DNA from: an uncultured Candidatus Saccharimonas sp.
Lineage (GTDB): Bacteria > Patescibacteriota > Saccharimonadia > Saccharimonadales > Saccharimonadaceae
DNA: 64,000 bases
Direction: 5' to 3'
Assembly: GCA_963532115.1 (NCBI GenBank)
Contig: CAUSJG010000002.1
Coordinates: forward strand, 12,550-76,549
Position 1 is the stretch's first letter, and each line of letters opens with the position of its first letter. This document shows positions 1,310-64,000 of this stretch, piece by piece. The position numbers were made by a program, and so were the translations under genes. Under the pieces are notes generated by a model, which saw only the letters and a list, made by a program, of their open reading frames with translations, was not told where the DNA came from and did no database searches.

Positions 1310-3286
1310 CTATTTCGCCATCTTCTTTCGAATCTCCGCAATCTGATCTCGTAAATCTGCTGCTTCTTCAAAAAGCAAATTTGCACTGGCAAGATTCATT
1401 TGATTCGTCAAATCTCGCACCAAATGCTCCCATTCTTCACGTGGAATTTTTCGCAAATCTAATTTTGGTTTTTTATCTTTTTGCGGAATAATCGCACGCA
1501 AACCTTCACCAATCTCACTAGCCACACTTTTTGGCGTAATTCTATTTTCGAAATTATATTTTTGTTGAATCTCTCGCCGCCGATTAGTTTCATCAATTGC
1601 GATCTTCATTGAGCGTGTAATTTTATCAGCATACATAATCACCTTGCCATCCTCATGCCGAGCCGCACGCCCAATTGTTTGAATCAACGCACTTTCTGAG
1701 CGCAAAAAGCCTTCTTTATCGGCGTCCATAATTGCTACCATTGAAACTTCTGGCAAGTCCAAGCCTTCACGCAAAAGGTTAATTCCTACCAAAACATCAT
1801 AAACCCCACTGCGCAAATCACGCAAAATATCACCACGCTCCAACGTGTCAATTTCGCTATGAATGTATGCTGTTTTCACACCATTTTCTTCTAAAAATCC
1901 GCTCAGATCTTCTGCCATCCGCTTGGTTAAAGTTGTCACCAAAACGCGCTGATTTTTCGAAATTCGCTCTCGAATTTCTTCCATTAGATCATCAACTTGA
2001 CCTTCGATTTTTCGAACTTCAATTTTAGGGTCAAGCAAGCCCGTTGGGCGAATAACCTGCTGAGCTGGTTTTGGCGAATGTTCAAGTTCGAAATCACCAG
2101 GAGTCGCCGAAACATAAATCGCTTGATTGATATGCTTATAGAATTCTTCGAAAGTTAGCGGACGATTATCGAGAGCTGATGGCAAACGAAAGCCATTATC
2201 CACTAAAACTGTTTTGCGCGCACGGTCACCATTAAACATTCCGCGAACTTGTGGTAAAGTCATATGCGATTCATCAACTAAAAGCAAAAAATCATCAGGA
2301 AAATAATCTAGTAAGGTTGCCGGCTGCTCACCAGCTGAACGCTCAGTTAAATAGCGCGTGTAATTTTCGATACCTTTAACAAAACCAGTTTCACGGAGCA
2401 TTTCAAGATCATATTTAGTGCGCTGTGTTAGGCGTTGAGCTTCCAAAAACTTCTTATTCTTTTCGAAATATTCGTGGCGTGCGTAAAATTCTTTTTCAAT
2501 TTGTGGAATCGCTCGATCAATAATTTCCTTTGGCGTAGCATAATGTGAATTTGGAAAAATATCAAAAAACTGTGGCTTTTCTAGAATTTCGCCCGTAAGT
2601 GGATTTAATATAATCAAGCGGTCAATTTCATCGCCAAAAAATTCCACTCGCACTGCCAAGTCTGAGCCAGCTGTAAAAATATCAACCGTGTCGCCACGAA
2701 CCCGAAAAGCTCCGCGTGCAAAATCTACATCATTTCGCTCATATTGAATATCTTTCAAATGTCGCAAAAACTTCTCGCGATTATATCGCATTCCAGGCTT
2801 AATATGAAGCGCCATTTGCATATAACTCGCCGGCGAACCGATACCATAAATACAACTCACACTCGAAACAATAATTGTGTCACTTCGAGTTAAAAGCGCC
2901 TCGGTTGCTGCGTGGCGGAGTTTTTCGATTTCTTCATTGATTCGTGAGTCTTTTTCAATATAAGTGTCAGTGCTCGCGATATAAGCCTCTGGCTGATAAT
3001 AATCAAAATAGCTCACAAAATAATGAACTTCATTTTCAGGAAAAAACTTTTTAAATTCACTGTAAAGCTGTGCGGCAAGAGTTTTATTATGCGCCAAAAT
3101 TAAAGTTGGCTTTTGAACTGCTTGAATAATATTCGCCATTGTAAAAGTTTTTCCCGAACCAGTTACACCAAGCAAAGTTTGTTCACGCTCACCATTTTTT
3201 AAGCCTTCAACTAGTTGCGAAATTGCTTGTGGCTGATCTCCAGTAGGCTGGTATTTTGATTTTAACTTAAACTCGCGATATTTCAT
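1310..3286 (-). CDS. uvrB: excinuclease ABC subunit B
   Basis: 658 aa; Walker A GVTGSGKT, helicase motifs, C-terminal UVR motif ([15 protein letters not shown]). Confidence 0.97.
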
Positions 3287-3327
3287 TATTTATATTTTAT
3301 AATATTTTTGGATAGAATGCAAGAAAG

Positions 3328-3846
3328 CTAAATATCTAAGCAGTAGTAATGGCCTCCTTGCGTAGTACTTCCATCTCCAGATTCTAATCTAAAAGTAACA
3401 GCCGCATGACCTTCTTTCACATCATGATAAATATAGCCTTCATCCTCGGCACATCTCGATCCTTTATGTATACGAACTTGAGTTTTACCATGATAAGTCT
3501 TAATATGGTATTCAAACTTAGCTTTTCTGTTTTTTGTATCCATATTACCGTAGATTGCACTATCAATAGATATATCATATTCATCACCATCAGGATCTCG
3601 TATATCTTGCCTGATATACGGTTTGATACTTTCAAAAGACTCTGGCATCCTTCCTTTATTTGCCGATCGATAATTTTGTATAGCTCCAGCAATTTCACCC
3701 ATATCTCTTTTTCTTTGTTCATTTCTCTGTGAGCGTTGCAAAACTGGCAGCCCAAGAAATATCATTATAAATATTAATCCAGCAATTGCAAGAACTAAAA
3801 CAACTTCAATAATCGTAAAACCCCGATAAAGATTATGCTTTTTCAT
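3328..3846 (-). CDS. type IV pilin-like protein (prepilin-type N-terminus)
   Basis: Trimmed to ATG 3846: MKKHNLYRGFTIIEVVLVLAIAGLIF. This is a G/FTxxE cleavage-methylation motif plus a hydrophobic helix. Confidence 0.85.
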   Translation of the reverse strand: MKKHNLYRGFTIIEVVLVLAIAGLIFIMIFLGLPVLQRSQRNEQRKRDMGEIAGAIQNYRSANKGRMPESFESIKPYIRQDIRDPDGDEYDISIDSAIYGNMDTKNRKAKFEYHIKTYHGKTQVRIHKGSRCAEDEGYIYHDVKEGHAAVTFRLESGDGSTTQGGHYYCLDI

Positions 3847-3882
3847 ATCTTGATTATAGCATCTCTCACTACAAGAAGTCAA
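3844..3882 (-). promoter_or_regulatory. sigma70-type promoter abutting the pilin start codon (leaderless-type)
   Basis: Minus strand reads TTGACT-18 nt-TGCTATAAT-caagat-ATG. No Shine-Dalgarno is possible in the 6-nt gap. Confidence 0.6.
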
Positions 3883-3886
3883 GCTT

Positions 3887-3908
3887 AAAAACCGCCCAAA
3901 TTGAGCGG
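3887..3908 (-). terminator. intrinsic terminator, member of a conserved terminator repeat
   Basis: Minus strand CCGCUCAAUUUGGGCGG + UUUUU directly after the LOG-like gene. Near-identical copies at 16765-16792 and 20953-20980. Confidence 0.7.
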
Positions 3909-3914
3909 TTGGCC

Positions 3915-4523
3915 TTATCCATTTCCAGCGCGCTTTTCTGAAAGATGTTCGTCATCTCGTGGCGCAATAAAATCTGCATTTTTTTCATCTAGCCTTGCGA
4001 TCACTTTTCGAACGAGCCGCTCAGGGTTATTATCATAAATTATATCTTTCGTGCCCGGAGCTTCAACATTTTGCAAAAGTGTTGGAACATAATCTGCTAA
4101 AGCAGTACTTCCAAGCAAAACACCACAAACCTTGCGAGATTCTAAAGCAGTTGCAAGCTCATGAAGCGAGCCCATTCGACCACCAACCGTAATCACCGCA
4201 TCACTCGAAAGCACTAAATGCGTATCACGCCCAACATAGCTCATTCCCGTAAAATTAATATAATCAAAAGGCTTAAACGGTAATTTATAAGTATTTACAT
4301 GCTGCCGAAAACTTGAAGCGGGCGAAAAACCAATACTTAATCCGGTTCGCCCCTTAACGCTTACTGCACCCAAAGCTGCGTGGTGCGGTATGCCAACCGT
4401 TGCGCCAGTTGTTAGAATTTTTCCCTGCCGAACAATCTCTTGCCCGAGCCTAAAAGCTAAATCTCGTGAAGCTAAAACACTATCACCTGTTGCAGCTCCC
4501 GAAACACAAATTTGATATCTCAT
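3915..4523 (-). CDS. LOG/TIGR00725-like Rossmann-fold protein (possible nucleotide phosphoribohydrolase)
   Basis: 202 aa with a glycine-rich core (ICVSGAATG...TTGATVGIPHHAALGA...VITVGGRMGSLHEL), typical of the lysine-decarboxylase-like/LOG superfamily. Confidence 0.65.
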   Translation of the reverse strand: MRYQICVSGAATGDSVLASRDLAFRLGQEIVRQGKILTTGATVGIPHHAALGAVSVKGRTGLSIGFSPASSFRQHVNTYKLPFKPFDYINFTGMSYVGRDTHLVLSSDAVITVGGRMGSLHELATALESRKVCGVLLGSTALADYVPTLLQNVEAPGTKDIIYDNNPERLVRKVIARLDEKNADFIAPRDDEHLSEKRAGNG

Positions 4524-4533
4524 TCTTCTCCTT

Positions 4534-4986
4534 TTAAAATAATTTTTCTTCTATTTGCTTGATTGAATAATTTGAAAATTCCTGCTGATATTTTTCAAGA
4601 ATTTGCTGTTTTAATTCTTTTTCGAAAAAAGTTTTTGAATGCTCAGCCAAGTTCATTATTCTTTTATTTTTTTCAACATCTTTTTTGTTTGCTGAGACCA
4701 AACCATCTTCTGCGAAAAATATTGCATTGCCAAATTCAGCCCAAAAACCTTCATCATTCAGATGATTAACTAAAGCCGAAAAAGCTTCAATCATCAAAAT
4801 ACTATCGCCAGAAAACCCCAGCCTTCTCTCAATATTATGCGATTTTCGATACAACTCCGCCATAATTTGAGCTGAAACACTCTTTAACTCTGGTTTTTTA
4901 GCTTCTATTTTCGAAACACCAAAATCAAATTTTCTTGCATAAGCACCGCTCAATCCGAGCAATTCCGAGAGTCTATAACTTCTCAT
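4534..4986 (-). CDS. hypothetical protein
   Basis: 150-aa ORF. Overlaps the upstream PfkB gene by 4 nt and lies 10 nt from the LOG-like gene, so it appears operonic. No motif recognised. Confidence 0.6.
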   Translation of the reverse strand: MRSYRLSELLGLSGAYARKFDFGVSKIEAKKPELKSVSAQIMAELYRKSHNIERRLGFSGDSILMIEAFSALVNHLNDEGFWAEFGNAIFFAEDGLVSANKKDVEKNKRIMNLAEHSKTFFEKELKQQILEKYQQEFSNYSIKQIEEKLF

Positions 4987-58421: not shown

Positions 58422-58961
58422 TTAGAACGAACTTACACCATTACTTTGTGAGTAATTTGATGTCGCTCCTTGTGAATTATTTCCACCAACATCTTCGGGA
58501 GTTTTTCCAGCAAGTTTAGCTTTCACGCCTTTTTCAAGAGCGGAATTCCAAACTTTCGAAAGTCCTTCGATGTTCGAATTCATTTTTTCTGCGTCGACAT
58601 CGACAACATAATTCACAAATTCTGATGGAATTTCTTTCGCAGCAAGTTTTTCAGCGGCTTCAGTCCTGCGTTCTCGCATTGTGATTTTTCTTTCGCGTTC
58701 TTCGAGCTCACTGATTTTCGCCTTTTGAGCTTCCGCAGCACGCTCTTCATCGCTAAGCTTTGCCTTTCGTTCCCATTCTTTCTGGGCTTCGGCAAGTCGC
58801 TTTTCGAATTTAGCCTCATCTTTAGCACTTTTTTCGTTCAAGCGCTTCGACATGATTTCATTCACTTCATCTTGCGTGAAAGTTTTCGGTTCATCACCCT
58901 GTTGATTCTGGTTCATACCGTTTTCGCCAGCAGGTTTTGTTGAATCAGGATTGTTTTCCAT
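58422..58961 (-). CDS. capsid scaffolding protein
   Basis: 179 aa, highly charged and helical (FTQDEVNEIMSKRLNEKSAKDEAKFEKRLAEAQKEWERK...), located upstream of the capsid gene. Confidence 0.65.
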   Translation of the reverse strand: MENNPDSTKPAGENGMNQNQQGDEPKTFTQDEVNEIMSKRLNEKSAKDEAKFEKRLAEAQKEWERKAKLSDEERAAEAQKAKISELEERERKITMRERRTEAAEKLAAKEIPSEFVNYVVDVDAEKMNSNIEGLSKVWNSALEKGVKAKLAGKTPEDVGGNNSQGATSNYSQSNGVSSF

Positions 58962-59045: not shown

Positions 59046-59128
59046 AAAAGAAAAACGACTCTCAGCTTTATGCTAAAAGTCGCAAATGGTTCTGATAATA
59101 TTATAGCATAATGTTTATTCTTATGCAA
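59046..59128 (-). promoter_or_regulatory. late cassette A: promoter + conserved box + intrinsic terminator
   Basis: Minus strand TTGCAT-17 nt-TGCTATAAT, then 6 nt, then AGAACCATTTGCGA. An 11-bp hairpin CGACUUUUAGC-AUAAA-GCUGAGAGUCG (two G:U pairs) follows, then UUUUUCUUUUU. Confidence 0.6.
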
Positions 59129-59133
59129 TATTT

Positions 59134-59421
59134 TTAATAACGGACATTGTTCTCAAGATTTTCTCGCTCTTCGATCATTCGTTTTTGAATATATTCTGGA
59201 GCGTTATAGAAAAATGGCTTGCCGTTATCGATTGATTTCCGAGCAGCTTCAACGCAATCTTTGATGTGTTGCTCATCTCCACCAATCACTAGAAAAGCAG
59301 GCTCTCCGAAATCGTCAAATATTTTAAATTTTCGCGCATATTCATCTAAAACTTCATCGCTATACCACAAACCGTAAACTCCAACCGTGTCTTCGTGAGT
59401 GAATTCATATTTTGTTTTCAT
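59134..59421 (-). CDS. small protein translationally coupled to the MuF gene (candidate immunity/inhibitor)
   Basis: 95 aa; the ATG overlaps the MuF stop (TAATG). Acidic, with no TM helix. Confidence 0.6.
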   Translation of the reverse strand: MKTKYEFTHEDTVGVYGLWYSDEVLDEYARKFKIFDDFGEPAFLVIGGDEQHIKDCVEAARKSIDNGKPFFYNAPEYIQKRMIEERENLENNVRY

Positions 59422-61817
59422 TATAGTTTTGAAATCCTTTCTAATAATTCGTTAAACATATTAAAGCTTTCCGGCAAATATTTTTCATAAAGCTCGATTT
59501 CCTTTTTATCGTCTCGAGCAGTTGCTGAAAACATTTCGGCAAAAGCTTCTGAACCGAGAAAACGCTTTTTATGATTTTCAATTTGCTCCTTACTTAATTT
59601 TACACCTCTTATCGTTTTTCTGCCATCCCAATATTTCTGTTCGTGACCCATTCCGAAGACTCTTAACCCGTTATTAAACGCAGCACCACCATATAAATCA
59701 AAAATACTTGCTAAATCATTTTTTGAATAACCATTTTCAAGTTCGTTTTTAAGTTCAACAGACAAATTGTGTCGTCTATAGGCCAAATTTCTTCCTTCTT
59801 TAGTTTTTAGATACCTATTTGCTTCATCAAAAACAGTTTCACCAAGAGTTTTACCATTAGAAAGTTCAAACTTACCAGTAGCTCCATAAAATGAACCACG
59901 CCCTGCTCGATGATCAAAACCGTGACCATATTCATGCAGAAAAACCTCAAATGGTTTTCTTATATCTTTTCGATTTCCAGTTGAACCATCGAATATACCA
60001 GCTATACGAACACTTACCTTATTTCCAAGCACGCTAAAGTTATCATTCCCAAGCGGTGAATCTTTAAAAGATAGTTCGCTCGAAAATTTAGCCCAAATAG
60101 AACGATGAGTTTCCGGCATTGCGTTTAGTTTTCTGACGACTTTTTCTCTAGTATCATCAGTTTTCAATGCTTCATTGAGCGAATTTTCAAGTTTTAAGCT
60201 CTTAATATCAGAATTATTAACTTTTTTAGTTGGTGGTTTTTTAATTTTAACTTCAATCTTATCATCAGCCGGTGAAATACTCGGCGTTGAAGCTGGCTCA
60301 GCTTTCGATATTCCGCTAACTTTTGCCCATTTTTCATAGCTCATATTTGGTGTCTCGTAATTCTCGCCCGTTTTTGGGTTTCTGGCAATTCGAGTTTCTG
60401 GATCGAATTCTTCACCAAAATATGCGGCTGTTGTTGTTCGGCAAAGTGGGTGAAATGGTGGAAAGTTTACACCTTGTTTGGCTTCACTGATTTTAAAAAC
60501 TTTATGGTCTTTATGTTGGCAGATATCGCTAGTGCGGCCGTCCAGTGTTGCAATAATACGGTATTTTTCAACTCCTAATTCTTGGTAGGCTCGCAATTCT
60601 GCTGAGTTATGGTAAAAAGCAGATTCAGTGCGAACAAGCCGTTCAGCATAAAACCGCCCAACATCAAAACGTTCACGAACTTCACGGATCGTTTTTTCAG
60701 GACTTTGCCCAATTGCTACGGCTGTAGCTATTTTCGAATTGACTTGTTCAGCCAAAATGTCGGTATTCGCCCAGATACGGTTCGAAAAATGCTTTCCTTC
60801 AATTTTATAGTTCAAAATTTCCTGCACGGTTCGTGAGTCTAATTTTGAAAAGGTTAAAAGTGAACCAAACTGTTTTTCGGTATCAAAGATTGCTTGATTA
60901 TACGAATTATTAATTGTGTTTATAACCGAATTAGCCGTGAGATTATTCTGCTCAATTCCAGCCTTTTTTAGTTCTGCCCAAATCTGGTTATTGAGCATTT
61001 CTAATCTTGTCATTCTGAAATCGTAATTCTCCGGCAAATATTGATTCAAACCGAGTCGTTCCATTTCAGCTTTAAACCTTGCTATATTTCCGCTTGGCTC
61101 AATCCCTTGTAGTGCGAATTTGTCGAAAGTTTTATCGTTGCGGTAATAATTAGCATATAACTTCTTAATTTCACGAATTGTTCGAATTTCAGCATCAGTG
61201 TAAGCATTTTTTATCCGACGAATATAGCTCAAAGATTGTTGTTCTTGGTTTTCGAAACGGGCGGCGGCACGGTTTTGCCAATAATTTATCGTGTTAGTCT
61301 TGATTTTTTCTTTGTTTTGTGGTAATATTAAATCATAAAGAACACTGTCGTGTCTTGCATAAGAGGCGGCGGTGTTCTTTTCTTGTATAGAAATAAAGTT
61401 TTTAATACCGAACTGAGATACTCTTTTCTTAATTTCATCCCTGAGAAATATAGTTTTCTCCTCAGAATCTGAAACAATTTCATAAATAACCGAGTGTGTT
61501 CCTTGCTGGAGCGCTTTTTTTGTCTGATTTTCTACTGAACGAGCACTTGAAACCTGCTTAATCTCTACTTTTTGACCATTTACGATTAAGTCTGGCATCT
61601 TTACACCATCTGGCTTTTCTACTCGGCGGACGGCGTAAATTTGAGCATTATCCCCTAATTCTCCGCGGATAAACTCTACGATAGAGCTCTCCTTATCACT
61701 CAATGGATAATTCTTCTCAAACTCCCAACTATCATCAAAATTATCAAAAAAAGCCCGATACCCCGAGCTTGTTAACTCGGGGATCATTGGATCTTCTGTT
61801 TTTTTATTCTTTGGCAT
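59421..61817 (-). CDS. MuF/SPP1 gp7-family minor head protein with N-terminal PD-(D/E)xK-like module and C-terminal HExxH zincin-like domain
   Basis: 798 aa. PDLIVNGQKVEIK (aa 75-87); MuF core RTESAFYHN...ATLDGRTSDICQHKDHKVF...FPPFHPLCRTT (aa ~390-462); LHEYGHGFDH (aa 627-636); SEAFAEMF (aa 756-763). Confidence 0.8.
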   Translation of the reverse strand: MPKNKKTEDPMIPELTSSGYRAFFDNFDDSWEFEKNYPLSDKESSIVEFIRGELGDNAQIYAVRRVEKPDGVKMPDLIVNGQKVEIKQVSSARSVENQTKKALQQGTHSVIYEIVSDSEEKTIFLRDEIKKRVSQFGIKNFISIQEKNTAASYARHDSVLYDLILPQNKEKIKTNTINYWQNRAAARFENQEQQSLSYIRRIKNAYTDAEIRTIREIKKLYANYYRNDKTFDKFALQGIEPSGNIARFKAEMERLGLNQYLPENYDFRMTRLEMLNNQIWAELKKAGIEQNNLTANSVINTINNSYNQAIFDTEKQFGSLLTFSKLDSRTVQEILNYKIEGKHFSNRIWANTDILAEQVNSKIATAVAIGQSPEKTIREVRERFDVGRFYAERLVRTESAFYHNSAELRAYQELGVEKYRIIATLDGRTSDICQHKDHKVFKISEAKQGVNFPPFHPLCRTTTAAYFGEEFDPETRIARNPKTGENYETPNMSYEKWAKVSGISKAEPASTPSISPADDKIEVKIKKPPTKKVNNSDIKSLKLENSLNEALKTDDTREKVVRKLNAMPETHRSIWAKFSSELSFKDSPLGNDNFSVLGNKVSVRIAGIFDGSTGNRKDIRKPFEVFLHEYGHGFDHRAGRGSFYGATGKFELSNGKTLGETVFDEANRYLKTKEGRNLAYRRHNLSVELKNELENGYSKNDLASIFDLYGGAAFNNGLRVFGMGHEQKYWDGRKTIRGVKLSKEQIENHKKRFLGSEAFAEMFSATARDDKKEIELYEKYLPESFNMFNELLERISKL

Positions 61818-63171
61818 CGTTCATCTCATTCTGATCTGTAATCTCAGCATTATTCATTGTGTTGTCTGCTTCGTTTTTCTCACTCAGTGCAAGATCTACT
61901 GTCTCTTTGGCATCTCGCACAAATGAAAGCTGACTGACAAGCGTTTCACGATCTACGAGTCCGTTGAGGTTGTTGATAATCTGGCTGGTTTCAAGATCGT
62001 TTTGTGGTAGGGCTCGTTTGAAGACTACATCAATATCTTCGGTTGAAATTTTATCCATCTTTGAACCTTTTACAAGGAAGGAATTATAAATTCGGAATCG
62101 TTCAAGCAGACTCCGTTCGAAATATCGCTCTTTATCTTTGATATGTTGTTCGAAGTCAAGGAGCTTGTAAAGAATCGCTACACCGCTCGAATTGCCGGCG
62201 AAGTTTTCGTCGCTCATATCTGGTGTCATCGAGATTTTATGAATATCAGCTGCAATAGTTTTTCGAAGAACGTCAGCATCAGCTTCATCAATAGATTTCA
62301 CTATATATTCAATTTTGGCGTCTTGTGGAATGTTTGCGACCATTCGGCTGTCTTTGAGCATTGCTTGCTGTTCTGGGGTGAAATCTGTGCCATAAAATGC
62401 GAGTAACGCATCTACCAAACGTTCACGGTCGATTATGCGATCAGATTGAAGAATATTATAAGCATCAATTAACGGCAATACTGGCTCTGAATCTCCCATT
62501 CGGTCTGAACCGTTTAAATATTCGACAATCGGCACTTCACCAAATCTATGCTCGGTTCTAATATCTTCACTCGTTTCTGGGTCGCTTTCGAAAATAAGCG
62601 TTCCGCCTTTCAAAGTTCCTTCTTGTGTGTATTCTGGCGTTAAGATTGTAATTTGGTATGAATCTCTTTCGATTTTTCCGTGCGCATTGATAATTTCTTC
62701 ATAAACTATAGCGAACATCTTTTTATGTTCAACTGTCGTATCGTGAACTAAAATTATATTTCGTGGGTCAATTTTCACACTTCGAACTTCCGACTCTTCG
62801 TTAGCGTAAATTCGCTCATAAGCAACGCCATAAATGCTGGCGTGCGTTGCGAGTTCGACATCAAGATTTGAAATCGCTTGTTTACGGTATGAGTTATTCA
62901 AGTTCTCAATATTTATATCTTCGCTCGAAAGATAATTAACCGGTGATCCAAGCAAATAGCCAACATTAATTTTAGTAATATATCGTGCAAAATTAGTGAT
63001 TGCGAGAAGTTTATTCGGCGTTTCACGTAATGTTACAGGTTTATTTGCGTAATAATCAGCAAGAATCTTAAATTTAGCTCGATCTTGCTTGCGTTTGTCG
63101 CTTTCGATTAGATTTTTTATCAATTTTCCTGTTATTTCTATATTTTTTGGTAAGCAATAAAATTTTTCCAT
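61804..63171 (-). CDS. portal protein (SPP1 gp6-like)
   Basis: Trimmed to ATG 63171 (AAGGAGGA RBS). 455 aa, between terminase and MuF. Confidence 0.75.
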   Translation of the reverse strand: MEKFYCLPKNIEITGKLIKNLIESDKRKQDRAKFKILADYYANKPVTLRETPNKLLAITNFARYITKINVGYLLGSPVNYLSSEDINIENLNNSYRKQAISNLDVELATHASIYGVAYERIYANEESEVRSVKIDPRNIILVHDTTVEHKKMFAIVYEEIINAHGKIERDSYQITILTPEYTQEGTLKGGTLIFESDPETSEDIRTEHRFGEVPIVEYLNGSDRMGDSEPVLPLIDAYNILQSDRIIDRERLVDALLAFYGTDFTPEQQAMLKDSRMVANIPQDAKIEYIVKSIDEADADVLRKTIAADIHKISMTPDMSDENFAGNSSGVAILYKLLDFEQHIKDKERYFERSLLERFRIYNSFLVKGSKMDKISTEDIDVVFKRALPQNDLETSQIINNLNGLVDRETLVSQLSFVRDAKETVDLALSEKNEADNTMNNAEITDQNEMNDAKE

Positions 63172-63188
63172 ATTTCCTCCTTTTACTC

Positions 63189-64000
63189 TTAGAAAATTAG
63201 TGAGTTTGTGCCTGTTGAGCCTCGATTTGAATTTGTAATAATGATCGGCTCGGCTCGCGCGGTGCATTGCTCGAAGATTCCGGCCAAAATATCACACATG
63301 TCATCGTGGGCGTTTTTGCCTTTGCGTTGATATCTCAGAACTTCATTAGCAGCTTCTGGCCATTTTTTCTGCCAATTCGGTGGCATAAATAGATGATTCT
63401 GTAGCCATGCGCTCGATGATAGAATGCGACTTTCCTTGTTTTTGGTTTGCGTAGGTGTTTTAATAACTACTTTCGAATTTCCATTTTCTTCAAGAATCCT
63501 TTTCACGTTGCGTGCAAAACCGCGACCGCCGTTGTTGCTTTCAATCCTAGCAACGCTCACATCGCCGGAGTCCAACATTTCAGCAACGGCCTTTTCAGTA
63601 AATTCCATCGGCTTGTCGGTATAAGTTATGTCAGTTATATAAACATCTTGACCATTCTTAATGTAATTCGCGCTAGCAAGGAAGTCAGCACCTTTGTCGG
63701 CCGTGTCGGTGATATTTTCAACAATTCCCTCAGGCAGTTCATCCCACTCCATAAACGGCTTAAATAATCGCCCAGCGACATCGATTGGTTTTTGATTATA
63801 ATTCGCCTCCACAATATCCATATTCATCGCTCGAGTCTTTTTCTTAAAAGTTTCGTAGTTCAGAATATCATCGCACAGCATTTTCGGTTTACCTTTTGGA
63901 GTTTTTGTCACAGCACGATATTCAATTACCCGTGGCTTAAACTCTTCGATAAATCGTCCAGCAAGGTCACCAGTTGCCCAGCGTGTCATCACAAGGATTA
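63189..64000 (-). CDS. terL: terminase large subunit, C-terminal part (gene continues beyond window end)
   Basis: The frame is open to the window edge. TRWATGDLAGR linker motif and an RNase-H-like nuclease domain (DTADKGADF..., HDDMCDILAG). Confidence 0.8.
   Translation of the reverse strand, partial: ILVMTRWATGDLAGRFIEEFKPRVIEYRAVTKTPKGKPKMLCDDILNYETFKKKTRAMNMDIVEANYNQKPIDVAGRLFKPFMEWDELPEGIVENITDTADKGADFLASANYIKNGQDVYITDITYTDKPMEFTEKAVAEMLDSGDVSVARIESNNGGRGFARNVKRILEENGNSKVVIKTPTQTKNKESRILSSSAWLQNHLFMPPNWQKKWPEAANEVLRYQRKGKNAHDDMCDILAGIFEQCTARAEPIIITNSNRGSTGTNSLIF

Follow-up and report, generated by a model that had tools for sequence, protein, structure and literature searches.

A zincin-bearing MuF head protein with a linked small partner and a movable nuclease cassette in a Saccharibacteria prophage

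This study concerns a minor head protein of the MuF family, 798 amino acids (aa) in length, and the 95-aa protein encoded directly behind it. Both lie in a prophage within a 64,000-nucleotide (nt) stretch of DNA, hereafter the window, from an uncultured Candidatus Saccharimonas sp. (contig CAUSJG010000002.1). Our results suggest, with a probability that we put at roughly 0.6, that the larger protein is a polyvalent effector (a MuF 'toxin') carried in the phage capsid and that the smaller one is its cognate inhibitor. The MuF core is joined at its C-terminus to a predicted zincin metallopeptidase and at its N-terminus to a nuclease-like cassette, which close phage relatives have gained, lost, duplicated and repositioned. 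Proteins of this kind are already known (Jamet 2017; Iyer 2017). The novelty lies in the zincin and partner as a unit in a large conserved family, in a nuclease cassette that shuffles in frame, and in a host belonging to the candidate phyla radiation (CPR), the Saccharibacteria.

Oral Saccharibacteria are ultra-small epibionts; to our knowledge few defence or counter-defence systems are known from them and their phage biology is almost unexplored. Of the 191 'MuF toxins' predicted in phages by Jamet et al. 2017, a fifth (20%) have a metallopeptidase domain, and in 89% the gene is succeeded by an open reading frame (ORF) of less than 150 aa (PMC5576092). The window protein has the layout described there, with a MuF domain, a C-terminal domain of toxin type, an ORF of less than 150 aa next to it and a temperate phage as its context. 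In the literature that we searched, neither an experimentally tested metallopeptidase MuF toxin nor experimental work on any member of the present family was found. What the present locus offers is a clean two-gene unit, a zincin with an acidic partner of 53-96 aa, that recurs in hundreds of phage lineages, together with the gain, loss and repositioning of a cassette within a structural gene of near-identical prophages, a natural experiment on how capsid-delivered cargo evolves.

As the original prediction had it, the ORF between the portal and scaffold genes contains a MuF/gp7 core, which two profile models recognize above their curated cut-offs. Pfam Phage_Mu_F (PF04233) matches aa 358-463 (nt 60429-60746) with an expectation value (E) of 1.3e-16 and 61.8 bits against a cut-off of 29.6, and TIGR01641 (phageSPP1_gp7) scores 89 bits against 39.65. 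The alignment to phrog_115, 'minor head protein', spans aa 168-797, and in tblastn searches 1081 phage records match aa ~165-570 alone. Proteins of the SPP1 gp7 type are low-copy pilot proteins of the capsid interior that are ejected with the DNA. Another MuF-family ejection protein is gp44 of the staphylococcal phage 80alpha (PMC12323379).

The region following the core, aa 540-798, belongs to a family with 847 representatives at E <= 1e-3, 320 of them reaching E <= 1e-10. Word-indexed protein searches returned 3-4 close relatives for each of three query pieces, so that the size of the family becomes visible only through an exhaustive profile search. A tblastn search of aa 505-798 against phages gave zero matches, the same search with a more typical family member gave only Listeria B054-type phages and one metagenomic virus, and searches of the PDB by phmmer with the whole protein, and with a four-sequence profile, gave zero matches. 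The domain ends at most 20 residues from the C-terminus in all 129 full-length matches and is essentially stand-alone in 39 of them. Domain scans of 84 relatives found Phage_Mu_F on 31 and Phage_min_cap2 on 14, with S78 protease, ADP-ribosyltransferase, 2H-phosphoesterase or CdiA_C domains also on a few. Pfam ATLF (PF07737) matched 4 of the 84 weakly (best E 5.7e-5), and MPTase-PolyVal was not among the Pfam matches of the window protein or of these relatives. The original prediction had allowed that this region might be an ordinary part of gp7 proteins lacking a metal site; to judge from the sequences, it is instead a frequent addition to one subset of MuF proteins, and its metal site is conserved.

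Conservation within the domain is concentrated in the residues that a gluzincin would need. The HExxH motif, the Asp at +3, an SD pair, GH..YW and E.FAE are invariant or nearly so in two alignments, A4 and A5, of 84 and 24 diverse relatives (A5 being too diverse for pattern-based retrieval of loci). HExxH is kept in 52 of 52 homologues encoded by the loci retrieved, which came from 51 viral contigs and ten genome contigs. Within GH..YW the Tyr is invariant in both alignments, the Trp invariant in A5 and nearly so in A4, the His invariant in A4 and nearly so in A5, and the Gly nearly invariant in both; since this Tyr lies just upstream of the predicted third zinc ligand, it is a candidate for a catalytic role. 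That ligand, the first Glu of SEAFAEMF, is invariant in both alignments and pairs, in a profile alignment, with the second Glu of PPEP-1 'PEEFFAESF', which we take to be the zinc ligand E185. The combination of HExxH with a downstream Glu, proposed at the outset from the window alone, is thus invariant across distant relatives, and the motifs are not a product of chance. HEYGH and the nuclease motif PDLIVNGQKVEIK lie where they had been placed; SEAFAEMF ends at 59552 and not at 59549, a slip of 3 nt.

An AlphaFold2 (AF2) model of the domain, built from a 24-sequence alignment, has a mean per-residue confidence (pLDDT) of 91.5 and a predicted template modelling score (pTM) of 0.91. When it was compared with the PDB by Foldseek, the top 22 matches were all anthrax lethal factor (LF), with probability 0.69-0.99, E 0.06 and a template modelling (TM) score of about 0.40, and PPEP-1/Zmp1 came next. 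The best matches among predicted viral structures, labelled 'minor capsid proteins', came from uncultured siphoviruses (E 2.4e-8, TM 0.73). A hidden Markov model (HMM) of the family, run against the PDB, likewise found PPEP-1/Zmp1 and LF first, at E about 0.04, through three collinear blocks that include HExxH and E.FAE. Because these individually marginal measures agree, the domain is predicted, from sequence and model, to be a gluzincin nearest to MEROPS family M34. The resemblance to lethal-factor-type (ATLF-like) domains that had been noted at the outset survives in this form, LF and then PPEP-1 being the nearest solved relatives. A role as prohead maturation protease was considered for the zincin and rejected: in this phage the scaffold is separate and the capsid protein short, an S78 protease is also present in some relatives, and phage B054 has a separate maturation protease gene.

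The small ORF downstream is tied to the zincin. Sixty-nine loci (designated here by L numbers) have room downstream of the zincin gene, and in 65 of these an ORF of 53-96 aa, belonging to one homologous family, begins at -13 to +13 nt relative to the zincin stop; the count rises to 67 with a 176-aa homologue in L002 and L003 (BLASTP E 3e-17). An HMM made from non-Saccharibacteria partners only picked out the window ORF at E 1.1e-6 among 3564 ORFs, and its sole other matches away from an intact zincin gene were copies in a decayed prophage remnant. BLASTP did not connect the 61-aa partner of L004 with the 95-aa protein, but the family HMM did. Partners occur with or without the nuclease cassette and also follow stand-alone zincins (L004, L023, L064), and they are absent from five zincin-less MuF loci used as controls. 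In three of these, Javan355, phiOH2 and phiCT9441A, the MuF protein has a C-terminal extension of another type, and the small ORF behind it is unrelated. In the Clostridium phage phiCT9441A (L082, 2486-4502) the extension has a CxxC motif, is deaminase-like by eye and precedes an unrelated 110-aa ORF, an arrangement from which it would follow that the downstream small ORF changes with the type of C-terminal domain.

Partners are acidic, with isoelectric points (pI) of 4.1-5.2 (6.2 in one member) and of 4.8 in the window; the pI of the zincin domain is 9.1. The last residue is Tyr in 19 of 31 partners and aromatic or aliphatic in 30 of them. Relatives of the partner family were looked for in Pfam and the PDB and none was found; 6 of 32 partners match phrog_29127, whose function is not known. 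Base 59421 is common to the stop of the 798-aa ORF and the start of the 95-aa ORF (TAATG), as had been noticed at first reading, and a Shine-Dalgarno-like site, GAAAGGA, lies ~13 nt upstream of that start. Since the partner is coupled in translation to a late structural gene, with no promoter recognised for it alone, it is easier to see as an inhibitor or chaperone produced alongside the enzyme than as an immunity protein expressed in the lysogen. In L011 (5950-7260; also L012 and L013) an intact partner gene of 88% identity persists where most of the MuF-zincin gene has been deleted; it resembles an orphan immunity gene, and it could reflect recent decay rather than selection. The L011 remnant sits in a Saccharibacteria chromosome, adjoins ribosomal protein genes and retains fragments of a cassette tail and of the MuF start. 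Elsewhere, in L064 (3684-4102), two tandem members of the partner family (HMM E 6.8e-20 and 5.2e-11) follow the stand-alone 324-aa zincin gene, and at 1972-3495 of both L055 and L056 the motif reads HESGH, the third-ligand helix is divergent (EAMAH) and a 195-aa ORF, scaffold-like by eye, comes directly after. On the sequence comparisons, zincin and partner appear to form a functional unit, in which the partner is most probably the cognate inhibitor of the zincin. Those parts of the original prediction that lie within reach of computation were all borne out. Of the toxin/immunity pair proposed there, the specific attachment of the small ORF to its enzyme stands; the polymorphism that such a name implies was not seen within the lineage.

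It is at the other end of the protein that close relatives differ. The motif PDLIVNGQKVEIK had been read as the PD..ExK motif of a restriction-endonuclease fold, a reading upheld by residues E33, D66, E/D75 and K77 (module numbering), kept in 5 of 5 copies compared, and by matches to Pfam CdiA_C (PF18451) in all cassette copies, that of the window falling below the curated cut-off. Homologous copies that are 40-51% identical to the window module score 30.8, 31.3 and 33.4 bits, above the cut-off of 26.6. The PD-(D/E)xK transfer RNase (tRNase) toxins of Burkholderia pseudomallei 1026b CdiA and Myxococcus SitA3 belong to CdiA_C (PMC9990079). Prophages whose zincin regions are 94-99% identical differ in the cassette, which is present in some (798-799 aa; the window, L001, L014, L022, L083 and L084) and absent from others (633 aa, starting MKDREKNETRSVDYWQNR; L015, L016, L018-L020 and nine IMG/VR contigs, L024-L032). 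In L017 (2123-4780) a single cassette is inserted after MMKDREK, giving a protein of 885 aa. In the more distant lineage, L008 (3727-7002) has two diverged cassettes in tandem and a protein of 1091 aa; in L009 (2-2632) one cassette interrupts the MuF core in frame, a 25-nt flank beside it being diverged, and part of another is seen at the cut N-terminal end. For the internal cassette of L009 an intein was considered and rejected, since neither a nucleophile nor an HN junction is present and the match to the uninterrupted allele resumes only past the linker.

In the window the cassette replaces the whole portal-MuF intergenic region of the cassette-less prophages. In L015, whose cassette-less MuF gene (2879-4780) encodes 633 aa, that region contains at about 2750-2835 a long, AT-rich, near-perfect palindrome (ATATATAAAATATAGATA...TATCTATATTTTATATAT), and the C-terminus of the portal protein differs between the two (NEMNDAKE against NEKVEE). 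An oral metagenome contig (L085, 3216-3689) has a cassette of 89% identity whose frame is broken after the ExK motif, through either pseudogenisation or an error of assembly. The same module, at about 40% identity, is found in a second group of oral phages, at the C-terminus of portal-MuF or protease-like-MuF fusions that have no zincin; the module there occupies the classical toxin position. The fusions (L077 1877-4414, L086 and L089) comprise portal-MuF proteins of 845-850 aa and a protease-like-MuF stop-to-stop frame of 662 codons. In L077, the only locus of this group that was checked, no small partner ORF follows the fusion gene.

Each cassette closes with a tail motif, for example ILPQNKEKIK or ILSQKREKVN, described by the pattern [ILV][ILV][SPA][QKEP][KNH]x[EK]K[IV][NK]. 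This pattern, which was defined post hoc, occurs in 1-4 copies per cassette-bearing MuF protein and in none of the cassette-less MuF proteins, nor anywhere else in 364,216 ORF residues. The motif is kept in the protein while the DNA differs, and it resembles the N-terminus, MKDREKNETRSVDYW, of the cassette-less MuF form.

Comparison of the window (59134-61817) with the diverged lineage represented by L006 (4632-7291) separates cargo from structural genes. The nuclease module is 76% identical between the two, the zincin 67% and the partner 66%; the corresponding values are 51% for the portal, 45% for the MuF core, 39% for the capsid protein and 30% for the scaffold. The better conservation of cargo suggests, at the level of sequence, either exchange of cassettes or stronger constraint. 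Zincin and partner are the same in all Saccharibacteria relatives seen, including the lineage with the 67%-identical zincin, and the variable part is the N-terminal or internal nuclease cassette rather than the C-terminal domain. The system thereby appears to depart from a textbook polymorphic toxin in having a constant warhead and partner, a variable N-terminal or internal part, a conserved partner family and apparent late co-expression.

In the reading that we favour, the 798-aa protein would be a small polyvalent effector built on a head-internal pilot protein of the SPP1 gp7 / 80alpha gp44 type. By analogy with other members of the family, the MuF core would direct a small number of copies to the capsid interior by the portal, and these copies would leave with the DNA. 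The zincin, of LF/PPEP-1 type and with HExxH...Y...E intact, is predicted to be an active endopeptidase that would act, within the newly infected cell, against a protein of the host or of a competitor, and the optional cassette, from the CdiA-CT(1026b)/SitA3 tRNase-toxin family, would be a second cargo. The 95-aa partner would be a stoichiometric inhibitor, functionally an immunity protein, that silences the basic protease domain in the producing cell, and the active-site cleft may receive the partner's conserved aromatic C-terminus.

Several observations weigh against this interpretation. The zincin is not variable among close relatives, unlike the warheads of classical polymorphic toxins; aa 505-798 of the window protein gave no Pfam match even at E 10; and the similarity to LF and PPEP-1 is marginal by each single measure quoted above. 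The window's own cassette scores 20.3-20.5 bits against CdiA_C over aa 73-142, which is below the cut-off, and in the 4-kb flanks examined no ORF that might serve as its immunity gene co-varies with the cassette. L055 and L056 keep HExxH and have no partner ORF, the only retrieved zincin loci of which this is true. Finally, no promoter-like site above chance precedes the 95-aa ORF. The partner is therefore probably made together with the enzyme in late expression and not in the lysogen, and lysogen protection, the usual sense of immunity, is unsupported.

Other explanations, in part compatible with an effector and its inhibitor, have to be set beside these data. The zincin could be a self-processing or maturation peptidase that cuts the MuF polyprotein at the linker motifs, in the capsid or after ejection, releasing nuclease cassettes and/or the MuF core, with the partner timing its activity. 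Autoproteolytic roles for zincins in polyvalent proteins are proposed, with P1 DdrB processing as the case cited, by Iyer et al. (PMC5512222), and the tail motifs, ending each cassette, conserved as protein and echoed at the cassette-less N-terminus, would be ready-made sites. These motifs, however, are confined to one lineage and their pattern was drawn up after the fact; most members with an N-terminal region carry only a MuF-type identified domain there, and the 39 of 129 zincins that stand alone have nothing obvious to process. A general cleavage motif in the MuF-zincin linkers was also considered and rejected, none being common to the whole family; KKPP is conserved in the Saccharibacteria linker. 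A dedicated, coupled, inhibitor-like partner throughout the family argues in addition that the activity is dangerous beyond self-cleavage, and we regard self-processing as unlikely. A broader scheme would join zincin, tail motifs and partner in one cargo system, in which the partner's Tyr plugs the protease as a product mimic until packaging, the freed zincin cuts the tail motifs, interchangeable nuclease cassettes are released in the infected cell, and cassettes move in frame between and within MuF genes. We hold this to be decidedly improbable; if true, it would amount to a phage-borne, protease-armed, shuffling effector array in CPR bacteria.

The mobility of the nuclease module raises the further question of whether it is a delivered effector at all or a selfish, homing-type cassette that invades MuF genes in frame and is tolerated. 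Its presence and absence among near-identical prophages, its at least four placements (replacing the intergenic region in the window, after MMKDREK in L017, in tandem in L008 and inside the MuF core in L009), the look of co-conversion about the L009 flank, and an identity of 76% between lineages whose MuF cores share only 45% would all suit such an element. The Pfam family to which it belongs is nevertheless one of secreted tRNase toxins, not of homing enzymes, the second phage group has the module at the C-terminal toxin position of MuF, and cassettes are always in frame with intact catalytic residues; homing, moreover, normally reuses one site, and neither a target site nor a duplication was identified among the placements. 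A homing cassette is on balance rather improbable. For the 95-aa protein, the roles of an assembly chaperone, of an adaptor that targets the zincin to the capsid, or of an independent acidic effector, such as a DNA mimic, merely sharing the operon position would accord with its coupling to a late structural gene, its lack of a promoter of its own above chance, its marked acidity, the conserved rather than hypervariable character of its family and the absence of a Pfam or PDB relative that would indicate an inhibitor fold. Against such roles, the partner is strictly linked to the zincin and not to MuF or head genes generally, it persists as an orphan after zincin deletion in L011, and its charge complementarity, conserved C-terminal aromatic and conservation parallel to that of the zincin would suit a binding partner of the enzyme; they seem to us rather doubtful. 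The framework of Jamet et al. (PMC5576092) would admit a classical interbacterial polymorphic toxin, released on lysis or borne on particles and killing competitors that lack the immunity gene, and a prophage remnant does keep the partner gene alone. This we consider highly improbable: the C-terminal domain is identical in kind across the relatives of the lineage, without polymorphism, a cytoplasmic protease has no entry route but phage ejection, with few copies expected per virion, and the same authors suggest a modulatory role for peptidase cargos (PMC5576092). An effector delivered from the capsid, with its inhibitor made alongside, therefore remains our preferred interpretation.

The features of the locus are collected in Table 1. 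The head module occupies the minus strand of the window from 57.5 to 64 kb, in the order terminase, portal, MuF, 95-aa ORF, DUF4355 scaffold and a 277-aa capsid protein; the MuF gene stands directly downstream of the portal gene, with scaffold and capsid further on, and the gene for the large terminase is truncated by the window end. The prophage runs from roughly 43.8 kb to past the window end (about 43800-64000), and the remainder of the window is bacterial chromosome with two transfer RNA genes. Nine genome bins of Candidatus Saccharibacteria (TM7) from the human mouth have near-identical copies of the locus, on contigs of up to 666 kb, and in database records the 95-aa protein appears as a hypothetical protein of Saccharibacteria or Nanogingivalis. 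From these chromosomal flanks, bin copies and record names we conclude that the element is a Saccharibacteria prophage. In the related contigs L006 and L007 the integrase gene lies just five small genes upstream of the large terminase gene, a spacing that points to compactness of the phage genome; the related viral contigs measure 25-32 kb. A megablast search of the locus against 50,697 phage records gave zero matches. The 798-aa protein falls in a 90%-identity cluster of 434 members; the 15 listed include proteins of 633 and of 798 aa.

Table 1. Features of the MuF locus, in window coordinates
Feature	Position	Strand	Basis or remark
Portal gene	61804-63267	minus	overlaps MuF gene start
798-aa MuF-family minor head ORF (pilot/ejection type, three modules)	59421-61817	minus	ORF list, profile matches
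PD-(D/E)xK nuclease-like cassette, aa 1-175, optional	61293-61817	minus	Pfam CdiA_C, residue conservation
PDLIVNGQKVEIK, aa 75-87, D...ExK catalytic core of nuclease module	61557-61595	minus	kept in all module copies compared
ILPQNKEKIKT, tail/linker motif closing each cassette	61296-61328	minus	
MuF / SPP1 gp7 core, aa 176 to about 500	60318-61292	minus	Pfam, TIGR01641, PHROG, tblastn
ATLF/M34-like gluzincin domain (predicted), aa 540-798	59424-60200	minus	profile family, AF2 model, Foldseek
HEYGH, aa 628-632, predicted zinc-binding/catalytic motif, Asp at +3 (HEYGHGFD)	59922-59936	minus	
GHEQKYW, candidate catalytic Tyr as in LF and PPEP-1	59628-59648	minus	
SEAFAEMF, aa 756-763, first Glu the predicted third zinc ligand	59529-59552	minus	
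95-aa ORF, acidic partner protein	59134-59421	minus	ORF list, family HMM
Promoter-like element, then hairpin and T-run	59055-59128	minus	end of terminase-portal-MuF-partner block
DUF4355 scaffold gene	58422-58961	minus	

A promoter-like element, TTGCAT-N17-TGcTATAAT (59128-59100, minus strand), is situated in the gap that separates the 95-aa ORF from the scaffold gene; it recurs with different flanks in the diverged L006 lineage as TTGCCA-N17-TGcTATAAT. About 17 nt downstream of it (59083-59055, minus strand) stands a GC hairpin with a T-run, found in both lineages with differing sequence. Such an arrangement brings to mind a late promoter met at once by a terminator, as in antitermination control, or a small RNA.

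Viewed against known systems, the protein combines elements that are each familiar. With SPP1 gp7 and 80alpha gp44 it shares a homologous core and a like gene position after the portal, and low-copy packaging and ejection would be expected here by analogy; those two proteins are without enzymatic cargo domains. With the M34 peptidases LF and PPEP-1/Zmp1 (ATLF) the zincin shares HExxH, the downstream Glu in an E-x-F-A-E helix and the conserved Tyr that just precedes this Glu; the overall folds are probably alike, the identity being about 10-14% and the TM score about 0.4. It differs in extra helical inserts and in its invariant SD and GH..YW, and whereas LF and PPEP-1 are secreted, the window zincin would be cytoplasmic and capsid-borne. 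The nuclease module has the PD-(D/E)xK core with D...ExK of CdiA-CT(II) of Burkholderia pseudomallei 1026b and of SitA3, in which the domain is a delivered toxin module; in the window it is fused to a phage head protein, its place in this and related proteins is N-terminal or internal, and no CdiI-like immunity gene stands alongside.

Closest in conception are the polyvalent proteins, among which zincins form the main hub, one widespread phage clade has HExxH with Asp(+3), and delivery with the DNA is proposed (PMC5512222). The window protein likewise joins several effector domains and a virion-targeting MuF on one polypeptide, with a zincin of the HExxH-plus-Asp(+3) type. It is much smaller, with three modules, its zincin is nearer to ATLF/M34 and has no MPTase-PolyVal match, and a dedicated small partner gene was not found in the passages of that paper that were read. 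The tripartite layout itself, with the N-terminal nuclease module that the original prediction had not counted as part of the known architecture, falls within that concept.

The only cultured-phage example found is Listeria phage B054, in which gp4 couples MuF to a zincin of the same family (HMM E 3.4e-25) and an overlapping 56-aa ORF, gp5, comes next. By eye gp5 resembles the partner family; its match to the partner-family HMM is not significant. B054 differs from the window in having no nuclease cassette and in the separate head maturation protease gene that follows. With the MuF polymorphic toxins (PMC5576092), finally, the locus shares a MuF protein near the portal, a C-terminal enzymatic extension, a small ORF downstream and a prophage context. 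It departs from them in that its C-terminal domain is constant and a second cargo lies N-terminal to, or inside, the MuF core, in that the downstream ORF belongs to a large conserved family and is not idiosyncratic, and in that the host is a CPR bacterium.

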